64,000 nucleotides of DNA from Myroides sp. GTDB lineage: Bacteria; Bacteroidota; Bacteroidia; Flavobacteriales; Flavobacteriaceae. The stretch's first letter is position 1, and every line of letters begins with the position of its first letter. The notes beneath the pieces are model-generated. The model ran no database searches, was not told the origin of the DNA, and saw nothing but the letters and a program-made list of their open reading frames with translations. The position numbers were made by a program, and so were the translations under genes. The DNA lies in assembly GCA_036643355.1 (NCBI GenBank), contig JAVXSC010000001.1, positions 62,205-126,204 on the forward strand. Reading direction: 5' to 3'. This document shows, in pieces, positions 2,831 to 9,436 of the stretch.

Positions 2831-3044
2831 AATTACACAGTTAACGAAAACGCCAGCCCGTAATCGAGTAGACGGCTCCGCCAGTAACTGACGGAGTGCG
2901 CCTCTCACACCACCGAGCGTACGGGTCACGTACTCGGCGGTTCGCAAAGAGATGGGTTAAGTTGTAAATGTAATTCAGTTAAGGAAACATATCCTCTTTT
3001 CTTCAAGCGTTGTAAAGTAATGGTAGTGCCTAGAATAGGACTTT

Positions 3045-3094
3045 ACTCACGCTTTCTTATTGTTTTTTTTGGTGTTCGTGAATGCAAAGCATTT
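3045..3094. mobile_element. 50-bp insertion 1 in RT ORF (TTT at both junctions)
   Basis: Removal restores AIAQ-SPIL; 42/50 identical to 3721-3770. Confidence 0.85.
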
Positions 3095-3720
3095 GTGCTA
3101 TTGCCCAACCGCCTTTCCGTGTTCTGCTCCAAGCGTAGGCATGGTCTTGGTCTACACCTAATCGAATCAGGTTTTTCCTTTTCCTTTCGGGTTTTTTCCA
3201 ATGATGCCAAATGCAATAGCGCAGTCGGTTGCGAAGCCAACCATCTAAATCTCGTAATTTGCCCAAAATACTCGTGCCTTGGAAATAGTTCAACCATCCG
3301 CGTTGCACTTCTTTTATCTTGGCAATACGCTCTTCAAATGTGGCTGGTGTGGTTTTTCGGGTGATTGTTTTAAGTCGTTCTTTTAGTTTCTTCCATGCTT
3401 TTTCCGATACAATGAGTTGATACTTGTTCTTGCTTCCTTTCTCGTACGTAGGTGCAAATCCAAAACCCAAAATTGTGAAGTGGATTGGTTTTCTGATACC
3501 GCTCTTTTCTTCATTTATAGTTAATTTGAGTTTGTTTTTCAAAAACTTTTCAATTACCACTCTTGTAGCTTTAGCTTGATTGTGGCTTTTACAATAGATA
3601 CTAAAATCATCCGCATAACGTACAAATTTGTGTCCTCTTCGAGTCATTTCCTTATCCAATTGATGCAGTAAAATGTTCGACAATAATGGACTTAAAGGGC
3701 TTCCTTGCGGAACGCCTTTT

Positions 3721-3770
3721 ACTCACGCGTTTATATTTGTTTTTTTTGTATTCGTGAATGCAGAGCATTT
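3721..3770. mobile_element. 50-bp insertion 2 in RT ORF (TTT at both junctions)
   Basis: Removal restores KRR-KGVPQG; 42/50 identical to 3045-3094. Confidence 0.85.
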
Positions 3771-5089
3771 CTTCTCTTTCGTAGCTTTCCGTTGATTTTA
3801 ATAGGTGCTCTGAGCCATTTGCGTATGAGTTGCATGGTAGCATTGCATTTCACTTTTTGATAGATTAAATTCAGTAATAAACAGTGGTCAACTTCATCAA
3901 AGAAGTTTTTCAGGTCAATATCCACAATGTGGTTTAATCCTGAATGGATGTAATCCCGAGATTGTCCAACGGCTTGTCGGGCATTCTTGTGAGGTCTAAA
4001 TCCATAGCTGTAACTACTAAATTCGGGCTCAAAAAGTGGTGCAATAGTTTGTGCTAAGGCTTGTTGCAACACACGTTCTGTAGTGGTGGGAACACCCAAT
4101 AATCGAGTTTTCCCATTTCCTTTCGGAATTTCAATACCTAAAATGGGTTGTACTTGGTAGTTGCCTTGTTTGATTGCTTCAATCAGTTGTAGTTTCTTTT
4201 CAGAAAACACCTTGCGGAGCTCTCTTATAGAAACACCATCAACACCCGCACTGCCTTTATTGGCAATCACGTGTTCCAATGCTCTTTGAAGATTAAACGG
4301 TTGTACTACTCTAGTTATCATTTTAGTTGTTTTAAACTGTTTTCGTTAAGTAGGGCTACTATACGTTCCCTTACCTATTGAAAACCTCTTTACGTTCAGT
4401 CCTTCCTTGTTTGTGAGACCTATGCAGTTTCTATTTGCACCTCGTTTAACCTCAAGTACTATGACCTCTGCTGACTTCTTGGCTTGATTAACTCGTAACC
4501 ACCAAGACCTCCCCTGGTAAATGCTTTTTCCTTCCGTCTATCGCCGGTACATCTACATAACAATAATCTGATTTAATAGCATGTTCAGAACACTGTTTTG
4601 GACTTCGTATTGCTGTGGATACTCATCCTTATTGCTATGCCTCTTATGTACTTTCTGTTCGTCGGTACAGACTTTTGCAGTTTACCCACCCGCCTGCTGG
4701 CTCATTCGCTAAAAATGTCCACTGGACATTTTCTTTACGCTCTGCCCTCTTCAGTGCATACCTCACGATAAACCACCTTACAGCTTGCTAACGATTCGGG
4801 GTTTCAATCCGCTCGTAAGGGACTTGCACCCTCTGGAAAAATAACACCCCGAAAACTTGGTTCATAAAACTAAATTTGTATTTTTGAACTATTTGAAAAG
4901 CTTTCGGGGTGTGTCCTGCATATGCAGGGCACACACAGGCGTTTGGCTCAATGGCGGGTTAAGTGGTTAATTGAACATTCTACCTCGCATCAACTTTTGT
5001 GGTGTATTGACAGTTTTGTGCTCCGAAATCCGCCACTGCGCCAAGCGCCAAAACGTTAGCTGTAATGCTCCAAAAAAAATGTTCCAAAA

Positions 5090-6056: not shown

Positions 6057-7826
6057 ATGTATTATAGTAATGGAAATTATGAAGCATTTGCCCGTCCTCT
6101 GAAACCGGATGGCGTGGACGAAAAATCAGCTTATCTTATCGGATCCGGATTAGCATCTCTTGCCGCCGCAACCTTCCTGGTGCGTGATGCCCAAATGAAA
6201 GGCAATAGGATCCATATTTTGGAAGAGCTTGCCCTTCCCGGTGGCAGTATGGACGGCATCTGGAACGAGCAGAAGGGCTACATCATTCGTGGCGGCCGGG
6301 AAATGGAAATACATTTTGAAACATTGTGGGATTTGTTCCGCTCCATTCCGTCTTTAGAGACAGAGGGCGTTTCTGTCCTGGACGAATTTTATTGGTTGAA
6401 TAAAAAAGATCCAAGTTTTTCCCATGCACGTCTGATAGAAAAACAAGGACAGAGGGTTGCTTCCGATGGAAAACTTACTTTATCTCAAAAAGCCATTCAG
6501 GAACTGATAGAATTATTTCTGACCCCGGAAGAAAAACTACAGGATGTAAAGATTAATGAGGTTTTTACAGACGAATTTTTCAAATCCAATTTCTGGGCGT
6601 ATTGGGCAACGATGTTTGCGTTTGAGCCTTGGGCAAGTGCGATGGAAATGCGCCGTTATTTGCTGCGTTTTATTCATCATGTGGGACATGTTGCCGATAT
6701 GTCCTCTCTTCGTTTTACCAAGTATAACCAATACGAATCACTGATTAAACCTTTGGTGAAATATTTGGAAAGTCACGGTGTGCGATTCCAATATAACACT
6801 CAAGTGCAAAATGTAATTATAGATCATATCGACGGTAAAAAAGTTGCAAAAAAAATAGAACTTGTCCAAGACGGAAAAGCAGAGACAATCAGCCTTACAG
6901 AAAATGATTTGGTGTTTATTACCAATGGTTCTATCACGGAAAACAGCACATATGGCGATAACCATACCCCTGCTCCTGTAAAACATACTATCGGTGGAAG
7001 TTGGCAATTATGGAAAAATATCGCACAACAGGATACGGACTTTGGTAGGCCTGAAAAATTCTGTGAAAACATTCCCGAAGCAAACTGGGTTATTTCCGGT
7101 AGCATTACCTTTTCCGACAACAGAGTGGTTCCTTACATTGAAAAAATATGCAAAAAAGATCCGCTTAGTGGTTCCATCGTTACCAGCGGACCTGTAACCA
7201 TTCAAGACTCCAATTGGTGGTATGGTTTCTCTATCAGTCGCCAACCGCATTTTAAAATCCAAAAAAGCAATGAGTTGATCGTTTGGGTATATGGTTTATA
7301 TTCAGATAAATCAGGGAATTTCGTTCACAAAAAAATTACAGAGTGTACCGGAATAGAACTTTGTGAAGAATTGCTGTATCATTTGGGTGTTCCTGAAACA
7401 GAAATAAGCGAAATAGCGGCAAGTGCCAATACCATTCCTTGTCGTATGCCTTATATTACGACGTATTTTATGCCGCGTGCACTGGGTGACCGCCCATTGG
7501 TTGTACCCAAAAACTCGGTAAACCTGGCTTTCATCGGAAACTATGCTGAGACAGAAAAAGATACTGTTTTTACTACCGAATACTCCGTGCGTACCGCCAT
7601 GGAAGCAGTTTATACCCTATTAAACGTGGACAGAGGTGTACCGGAAGTATTTGCTTCGTCTTTCGACATCCGGGTATTGTTAAAATCCATTTATTACCTG
7701 AATGATGAAAAAGGATTAAAGGATATCAAATTGCCTTGGCTCATTTCTATTTTAGAAAAATATGGTCTCAAAAAAATAGAAGGCACCTATTTGGAAGAAC
7801 TTCTGAAAGAATCTCAATTAATCTAA
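6057..7826 (+). CDS. ohyA: Oleate hydratase (myosin-cross-reactive antigen family)
   Basis: [15 protein letters not shown]-terminus, GSGLAS FAD motif, [21 protein letters not shown]. Confidence 0.93.
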
Positions 7827-7840
7827 ATTTTTAAAATAAA

Positions 7841-9436
7841 ATGAGTACAAATAATTCCGAAAGACACGCATATTTCGTTGGTGGAGGATTGGCAAGTTTG
7901 TCAGGTGCAGTTTACCTTGTGGAAGACGGCGGATTCAAAGGAGAAAATATCCATATCATTGAAGCACTGCCTATTTTAGGCGGAAGCAACGATGGTGCCG
8001 GCTCCAAAGAAAAGGGCTTCATCTGCCGTGGCGGGAGAATGCTGAATGAAGAAACCTATGAAAATTTTTGGGACTTGACCTCCAGAATTCCTTCTTTGGA
8101 AGTGCCCAATATTTCGGTAAAAGATGAGATTTTGGCTTTCGACCACGCCAATCCTACGCACGCCCATGCACGCCTGATTGACAAAGACGGAAACCGCCTG
8201 CATGTAACCGATATGGACTTTAATACGCAGGATAGGATGAAATTCCTGAAACTTTTCTTTGCAGACGAAAACGATTTGGACAATGTTACGATCCGCGACT
8301 GGTTCGATGACCATTTCTTCACCACCAATTTTTGGTATATGTGGCAAACTACGTTTGCTTGGCAGGAATGGAGCAGTATTTTCGAGTTTCAACGTTACAT
8401 GAAACGGATGCTGTTGGAATTTTCCCGCATCGAAACATTGGAAGGTGTTACCCGTACGCCCTACAACCAATACGAATCCGTGATTTTGCCTTTGAAAAAA
8501 TTCCTCGACAAATACAACGTGGATTTTTCTTTAAGAAAAACCGTTACCGACCTCAATTTCAAAGAGGGCGACGGCATTACCGTTTCTGAAATTGTATGTG
8601 AAAACGCTGAAGGAAATACTGAAAAAATTACGGTAAACGAAGACGATTTGGTATTTTTTACCAACGGCTGCATTACGGACAATTCCGACAATGGCGATTA
8701 CAAAACACCCGCAAAATACCTTCCGGGCAATCCGCCAAGTTTTGCATTGTGGCGTAAAATAGCCGACAAAAAACCGGGCAAACTCGGTAATCCCGATCCG
8801 TTTTTTACCAAACCGGATGAGACCAAATGGTATTCGTTTACCCCTACTTTCAAGGGCAACAAAATGCTTCAATTGATTGAGCAATATAGCGGTAACAAAC
8901 CCGGAAGTGGCGCATTGATGACCTTTAAAGATTCTTCGTGGAGAATGTCGATTGTGGTAGCGGCCCAACCGCATTTTAAAGCACAGGGCGATGATATGAC
9001 CATACTTTGGGGGTACGGTTTGTATCCGGATGCGATTGGAGATTTTATAAAAAAAACGATGATTGACTGTACCGGCGAAGAAATTCTGACCGAGCTTATC
9101 CACCACCTGCATTTTGAAAAATACGAGCAGGAGATAAAAGACAGCGTTATCGACGTCATTCCTTGTATGATGCCATATATCGACGCATTATTCCAGCCAA
9201 GAGCCAAAGCAGACCGTCCGGCTGTGGTGCCGGAAGGAAGTACCAATCTGGCACTTATCAGTCAGTTTGTGGAAATTCCGGAAGATATGGTTTTTACCGA
9301 AGAATATTCGGTACGGGCTGCAAGGACAGCCGTTTACACGCTTTTAAATTTAGATAAGAAAGTCACTCCCGTAACAGAATATTGGAAACGCCCCGATGTG
9401 TTGGCAAAAGCCATTCATACATCTTATAGAAGTTAA
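7841..9436 (+). CDS. Second oleate hydratase, short-N-terminus type
   Basis: GGGLAS, RGGRMLN, YNQYES, FTEEYSVR. Confidence 0.9.
   Translation: MSTNNSERHAYFVGGGLASLSGAVYLVEDGGFKGENIHIIEALPILGGSNDGAGSKEKGFICRGGRMLNEETYENFWDLTSRIPSLEVPNISVKDEILAFDHANPTHAHARLIDKDGNRLHVTDMDFNTQDRMKFLKLFFADENDLDNVTIRDWFDDHFFTTNFWYMWQTTFAWQEWSSIFEFQRYMKRMLLEFSRIETLEGVTRTPYNQYESVILPLKKFLDKYNVDFSLRKTVTDLNFKEGDGITVSEIVCENAEGNTEKITVNEDDLVFFTNGCITDNSDNGDYKTPAKYLPGNPPSFALWRKIADKKPGKLGNPDPFFTKPDETKWYSFTPTFKGNKMLQLIEQYSGNKPGSGALMTFKDSSWRMSIVVAAQPHFKAQGDDMTILWGYGLYPDAIGDFIKKTMIDCTGEEILTELIHHLHFEKYEQEIKDSVIDVIPCMMPYIDALFQPRAKADRPAVVPEGSTNLALISQFVEIPEDMVFTEEYSVRAARTAVYTLLNLDKKVTPVTEYWKRPDVLAKAIHTSYRS

Follow-up and report, generated by a model that had tools for sequence, protein, structure and literature searches.

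Tiny non-autonomous repeats are a known kind of mobile DNA, and several described systems resemble the family reported here in one respect or another. HINE/DINE-1 elements, as presented in PMC4067079, are non-coding and carry sub-terminal inverted repeats of 12-15 bp, the 5' one lying at the very end, together with a 3' palindrome; they insert at T runs without target duplication and vary in their number of terminal Ts. In the HELIANO survey, as summarized in PMC11417382, Helitron-type elements went undetected in 4,491 bacterial genomes. IS91, in the account of PMC13181058, forms a single-stranded, end-joined circle, has sub-terminal palindromes and one precise end, carries neighbouring DNA along and uses a short target ending in T-T-C/G, which it does not duplicate. 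Bacterial MITEs are short, non-autonomous and found genus-wide, with terminal repeats of at least 10-15 bp and target duplications of 2-10 bp (as given in PMC11602168). REP/RAYT and Rickettsia palindromic elements are tiny hairpin repeats, some lying in frame within genes (as treated in PMC3733652), and the insert of T4 gene 60 is a 50-nt segment reinserted at the same gene position (as described in bioRxiv 10.1101/2022.08.31.505936).

The window studied here (the whole 64,000-nucleotide stretch of Myroides DNA that was analysed) contains two 50-bp insertions in a group II intron, which we are virtually certain belong to a family of mobile micro-elements. The family has the HINE traits listed above, whereas it is bacterial, measures only 44-55 bp and has arms of 7 bp, and we found no RepHel partner with these ends. 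With IS91 it shares every trait given above except the demonstrated circle, but the element has no transposase and its target can be a single T. Like MITEs it is short, non-autonomous and genus-wide, although its arms are asymmetric and just 1-3 Ts are shared with the target. It resembles REP and Rickettsia repeats in size and hairpins; it differs from REP/RAYT, as portrayed in PMC3733652, in lacking a GTAG or CGTC tag and in not being one long palindrome, and the element itself inserts into REP-like repeats. Compared with gene 60 as that preprint describes it, the family has neither a stop directly behind a take-off codon nor a matching landing codon, no homing nuclease lies alongside, and both length and phase vary. 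No description of the family appears in the main accounts of the literature consulted (PMC8421152, PMC3733652, PMC9769881 and PMC11602168 included), though the supplementary MITE lists of PMC11602168 could hold its sequences; the family is apparently undescribed. What sets it apart is its size, the occurrence of HINE-like ends in bacteria and the way in which it reuses retroelement sites to the base.

The host intron occupies 2863-4934 on the minus strand, where the Rfam scan of the window places RF02001 and RF01998 above gathering and RF00029 below it (2863-2942, E 1e-4). Its empty-site joint, 2862-4935, is seen in public run X1. The intron splits a hairpin site whose first half lies at 2839-2862 and second half at 4935-5062 (plus strand); by its sequence this site appears to be attC-like, and the target in turn suggests that the intron is class C-like. 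The RT/maturase frame (2926-4321, minus strand) is broken twice. Excising both inserts restores a stop-free frame of 431 codons, just as the sequence-only reading had stated, and both pieces of the RT match TIGR04416 (group II RT/maturase). This match ends at about codon 358, and the YADD motif is found at codon 219.

Several features surround or accompany the intron. Adjoining its hairpin site, 6057-9436 holds two tandem oleate-hydratase-like genes behind an AraC regulator, the first of which was confirmed. A third insert, in intron domain I (4682-4749, plus strand, ~59 nt net), belongs to an unrelated hairpin family with a palindromic core, GTCC..GGAC; it is single-copy in the genome, and its family occupies several further intron positions in relatives (L225, L239, L248, L249, L254 and L164). 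In genome G068, one array (L163) contains two full introns and two ORF-less 664-nt derivatives, one of them beside an rRNA gene end.

The site-A element lies at 3045-3094 (plus strand) in RT codon 393, with a left arm at 3045-3051, a T-rich loop, a right arm at 3077-3083 and a terminal hairpin at 3080-3094; its register slides 3 nt to the left. The site-B element, at 3721-3770 on the same strand, interrupts codon 184 just before the GVPQG motif, with arms at 3721-3727 and 3753-3759 and a terminal hairpin at 3756-3770. The initial description of the pair proved accurate: each is 50 bp, the two have the same orientation, 42 of 50 positions are identical, and TTT stands at both junctions of each. 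A third position, site C (3112-3117, plus strand, codon 385), lies 23 nt from site A; it is the site most often filled in relatives and is empty here, the window's allele being CCTTTCC and not CCTTTTC.

Each insert frameshifts the RT. The claim that they knock out the enzyme stands for site B, where codon 184 lies in the RT core and the insert, judged from its position in the reading frame, would abolish RT activity. It does not extend as firmly to the site-A copy, which would replace the last 38 residues only and may be partly tolerated. Since codons 393 and 385 lie past the profile end, an RT with an insert at site A or C may still assist splicing, which perhaps adds to the frequency of these inserts. 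The hairpins proposed at the element ends are no more stable than shuffled sequences (z -0.1 to -1.0) and draw their support from covariation, not energy, whereas the suggested pairing of each variable part with its flank was not borne out (permutation p 0.09-0.92 over 12 tests).

The inserts are real, because the same inserts occur in other assemblies. The site-A insert is identical in metagenome contigs L208 and L212 and has one T fewer in L184, and the site-B insert is identical in G073 and L156. All eight public runs examined (3 DNA, 5 RNA), in which the intron is 95-100% identical to the window's, skip exactly 50 nt at both sites with a 3-nt register ambiguity, so that no insert-bearing run was found among them; the five RNA runs all carry another strain's empty allele and so do not bear on removal from RNA. 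Both states therefore exist in nature. Elsewhere in this 79%-complete genome the subtype has no further copies, which upholds the impression that no other gene here carries a like insert, but about ten family copies with other tails are present in repeat-rich intergenic DNA.

Alleles with a single insert support the earlier supposition that the two were gained in separate events. G073 and L212 carry the same intron with 2 differences in ~1,330 nt, and G073 has only the B insert whereas L212 has only A. The window's intron is a mosaic holding both. At site B its insert equals that of G073, yet the flanking sequences diverge 11 nt left and 6 nt right of it, and in L156 the flank type switches across this site, between the differences closest to it on each side. 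One decayed intron has inserts at A, B and C that differ from one another by only 1-2 nt, which is what local copying would produce. In G068, two intron copies in different hairpin sites are identical at 1971 of 1972 positions, including their C insert, so that inserts either ride through the intron RNA stage or convert the second copy.

The family extends well beyond this intron. An exact-subtype pattern gave 11 matches in 6 of 401 genus genomes (control 0), ten of them in the RT gene of this intron. Searching a species collection with the 20-base hairpin end returned 127 matches in 118 stretches, nearly all from Bacteroidota among the matches listed, with at least 14 in RT genes and, by eye, at least 3 more intron sites; metagenomes yielded 47 matches, 13 in RT and, by eye, 4 in intron domain I. 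A strict tail-free core pattern matched 123 times in 70 of 201 genus genomes, its reversed control giving 0. Plasmid and phage collections contributed one chance match each, the 0, 6 and 66 matches of three patterns in viral contigs were all chance or coding, and no Rfam covariance model matched over the element.

Thirty loci of the core-pattern search show how ordinary genes accommodate copies. Ten copies lie in frame within the N-terminus of a gene that we take, from its sequence, to encode peptidyl-tRNA hydrolase; 13 sit on start codons, either read through in frame or providing a new ATG from the far arm; 4 are in REP-like repeats and 3 elsewhere. Ordinary-gene copies are thus in frame or rebuild the start codon at 23 of the 30 loci. 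The N-terminal extension of peptidyl-tRNA hydrolase represents an old in-frame copy present in many genus members (L345, L349, L353, L357-L359, L361, L363, L364 and L367). Further copies split array tRNAs in the anticodon and T loops, and removing the element restores the tRNA call in 4 of 8 loci tested. Long tRNA arrays with element-split tRNAs occur in marine Flavobacteriaceae (L045, L058/L336, L124, L141 and others), one of which adjoins RtcB and RF-1-like genes. Copies also lie within REP-like repeats, other mobile elements and, at L180, a CRISPR repeat; there the element sits inside terminal CRISPR repeats (2501 and 2679) whose ends resemble the element arms. At L407 (1436-1900), one gene is preceded by a stack of several modules, and after each of them the translation-start region is repeated.

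Among 114 distinct elements with 21 tail types, length ranges from 44 to 55 bp, and the layout consists of asymmetric 7-bp inverted arms, a T-rich loop and a terminal hairpin. The comparison of element sequences was made on matches other than CRISPR repeat-spacer ones. In 18 of the 21 tail types both outermost tail pairs are Watson-Crick. Among the matches listed, the hairpin end is precise and some left ends are truncated. Insertion, as seen against empty alleles, is clean beside a T, with 1-3 Ts shared and no real target duplication; the minimum overlap is one T, seen in relatives at the counterpart of window 2906 with the element reversed. The base following the final T run (n = 114) is C in 82, T in 17, G in 14 and A in 1, that is, C or G in 96, and the 17 T cases are hitch-hikers in Sphingobacteriaceae described below. 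In the intron as in tRNA arrays, copies are found in either orientation. On the strand that it uses, the subtype occupies 3 of 17 CTTT(T)S sites of the intron. A local hairpin was considered as the target rule and rejected, as local folding does not single out the used sites.

One covariation bears on how the ends meet. Base 2 of the left arm is complementary to the right-arm purine in 106 of 109 elements, whereas the position that would pair within the arm-arm stem is free to vary. The covarying pair can form only with the right end joined to the left. Its T-A form occurs in 6 tail types. The covariation may instead reflect descent of two subfamilies, the predicted best fold of the window's joined ends uses the arm-arm stem instead, and neither 201 genomes nor viral contigs yielded a head-to-tail junction.

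Within the intron, copies are far denser than elsewhere. Fifty loci found by RT homology alone contain 7 strict matches in 48,157 intron bases (5 without the window's own), and 12 of the 50 have a loose match. This corresponds to ~145 per Mb against ~0.16 per Mb genome-wide (123 matches over ~0.75 Gb in 201 genomes, estimated from rounded sizes), a several hundred-fold enrichment that is inflated by kin and duplicated copies. The suggested preference for group II introns is upheld in this quantitative sense and in the share of exact-subtype matches, but it is not exclusive, the family being genus-wide.

The same fixed sites, A, B, C and others, have been refilled across lineages. Site C requires 10 state changes on a 35-row tree. 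Its filled alleles are all TTTTC (13 of 13), whereas the 12 alleles of other types are all empty, a tally that takes L194 as permissive from its flanks; the window's allele is of the never-filled type. Site A is filled in 8 of 25 CTTTG alleles and in 0 of 10 others, and L267, outside the tree set, is an exception with a site-A variant in a CTCTG allele. These counts are to be read with the tree's filled alleles having been chosen by insert and with kin not being independent. Identical site-C inserts occur in introns 18% and 8% apart, and insert distance correlates weakly with intron distance (Mantel rho 0.38, p 0.016), so that part of the pattern is inheritance. Elements of unrelated sequence with a like layout fill the same intron sites, as seen in a survey of relatives' intron inserts that took one locus per duplicated sequence. 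At the 2906 position, between domains V and VI, inserts are common to intron copies at different sites with otherwise intact RT (L224/L253, L228/L257 and L243/L259), and are apparently compatible with intron mobility.

In our view the best explanation, to which we give an even chance, is a 44-55 bp non-coding family that inserts beside T and moves as single-stranded DNA by means of a nicking enzyme supplied in trans. We favour single-stranded, rolling-circle-like movement because the layout matches both Helentron-type HINEs and IS91 ends. The enzyme would be HUH- or rolling-circle-like, and the hairpin end would be the fixed, origin-like end. An end-joined single-stranded intermediate may then integrate into exposed or folded DNA, and copies could move from one intron allele to the same site of another. 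Survival would sort the products: ordinary genes would keep only copies that are in frame or rebuild a start codon, and frameshifting copies would accumulate in dispensable, structured mobile DNA, to be carried along when the intron is copied.

Searches for such an enzyme covered Y1, Y2, IS110, small GIY-YIG and Helitron-domain genes, none of which has matching ends; PIF1 hits and, in this genome, 12 tyrosine-recombinase hits also exist. Y1 genes are absent from genomes G000 and G425, and none of the 18 Y1 loci examined has an element within 1.5 kb, which again sets the family apart from REP/RAYT and also from IS200/IS605. Nine Y2 loci occur in 2 of 5 related genomes, none with matching ends, a further difference from IS91. 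One genome (G279, L272-L280) has six tandem integrase and IS91-type elements in attC-like sites of a single cassette array. Small GIY-YIG genes were rejected as candidates: in the 10 of 29 loci read, none has matching ends, and the one that lies ~0.6 kb away from a copy has other repeats at its flanks. At L418 (G068) and L426 (G033), small GIY-YIG genes stand in tandem, with a duplicated tRNA end flanking each of them. A Helitron-domain lead was also discarded, as its one match in 151 genomes is a histidine kinase. No mobility gene is present among the genes near clustered copies. No longer element with the same ends is found among the 127, 47 and 20 end matches listed; the last 20, right ends chosen for an absent T run, are all short elements again, bar one chance match.

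The main rival, which we think unlikely though by no means negligible, places entry or spread at the RNA/cDNA stage, either through RT template switching onto a small hairpin RNA or through filled and empty intron copies converting each other, a kind of homing for which the inserts would need no nuclease of their own. The several hundred-fold intron enrichment, the flank-type switch across site B in L156 and the way in which the same insert variant keeps to the same site all fit such a route, as do the precise hairpin end with some truncated left ends among the matches listed and the accumulation of other, unrelated micro-inserts in these introns. Most family members, however, lie outside introns, and copies occur in both orientations relative to intron RNA and tRNA. 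At site B, sequence differences lie as close as 11 nt left and 6 nt right of an identical insert, which is also very short for homologous conversion. An RNA/cDNA route could thus account for spread among introns but not for the whole family, and RT-linked spread among intron copies may act alongside the single-stranded DNA route.

A second alternative, improbable in our estimate, is that the element is a miniature double-stranded donor whose arms bind protein and whose T run serves as crossover core, the site-specific recombinase being either a bridge enzyme of IS110/IS1111 or a Bacteroidota tyrosine integrase. It would agree with the sub-terminal asymmetric inverted repeats, the lack of target duplication and one copy lying 288 nt from an IS110 transposase gene. 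That neighbour is probably secondary, however: IS110 accounts for 1 of 39 upstream genes and, among the matches listed, is absent before the same gene family elsewhere. A bridge-RNA target is ~14 nt long, and the targets here share ~3-5 nt, far below that length. A double-stranded circle of 50 bp is, moreover, sterically unlikely.

The recombinase alternative also gains from the Sphingobacteriaceae copies, which empty alleles show to be nested near the end of a different, larger insertion of 135-390 bp in the promoter -7 box (the -7 consensus used here is that given in PMC9723704). This larger element is non-coding, consists of stacked hairpin modules, lies in promoters of housekeeping genes and rebuilds the -7 box at its end. 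Allele pairs are L095 against L385/L386, L083 and L391 against L389/L390, and L097 against L378, and bursts occur in 16 of 61 Sphingobacterium-group genomes among the matches listed. A programmed excision switch for these promoters was ruled out, as the empty alleles lack the larger, different insertion and the downstream genes form no regulon.

The inserts are in all likelihood not removed from RNA, against an early suggestion of an RNA-removable or recoding insert. Removal of the inserts from RNA or skipping by the ribosome, as by a tiny intron, a gene 60-like bypass or frameshifting, with RT still made, strikes us as very improbable. The 50-nt length is that of the gene 60 insert, two G068 copies share an insert with no intact copy found in that one-contig genome, and insert-bearing RTs differ mostly synonymously (42 versus 12 codons). 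The synonymous bias is, however, explained by recent insertion, because near-identical empty alleles exist. Against bypass, the entry phase differs between A and B, stops occur in both the entry and the correct frames, and take-off and landing codons do not match. Lengths vary from 44 to 55, both orientations are used, the inserts travel with duplicated introns and multi-insert introns have decayed. The preference of ordinary genes for in-frame or start-rebuilding copies would be needless for a removable insert. Least probable of all is that the inserts are excision scars of a longer transposon, as was once proposed, or an assembly artefact: scars alone would leave no need for an autonomous element to be present, but no long form occurs among the end matches listed, the near-identical copies at three sites of one decayed intron indicate that the short form itself was copied, and identical inserts recur in independent assemblies.

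What stands is the reading as a tiny non-autonomous mobile element, on the evidence of a family with empty alleles, clean insertion, a requirement for C or G after the target T, and site reuse, for which single-stranded movement with an enzyme in trans is our preferred account. More speculatively, and with doubts well outweighing our confidence, bacteria may own HINE-like rolling-circle satellites of ~50 nt, with end-joined single-stranded circles, copies that rebuild start codons and hyperparasites that home from one group II intron copy to the corresponding base of another; if true, these would be among the smallest mobile DNAs described. Descriptions of such a layout have until now concerned eukaryotic rolling-circle elements. 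An element of ~50 bp that leaves no target duplication is missed by IS and MITE finders, although about a third of the sampled genus genomes carry one. The element has altered the N-termini of proteins such as peptidyl-tRNA hydrolase, disrupted tRNAs in arrays and made its way into CRISPR repeats and into elements that target promoters. The enzyme, once found, would shed light on how Helentron-type ends arose, and it could provide an insertion system that is scarless and very compact. For the intron itself, a copy at a few fixed bases in about a quarter of the loci examined makes the element a candidate brake on the spread of the retroelement.
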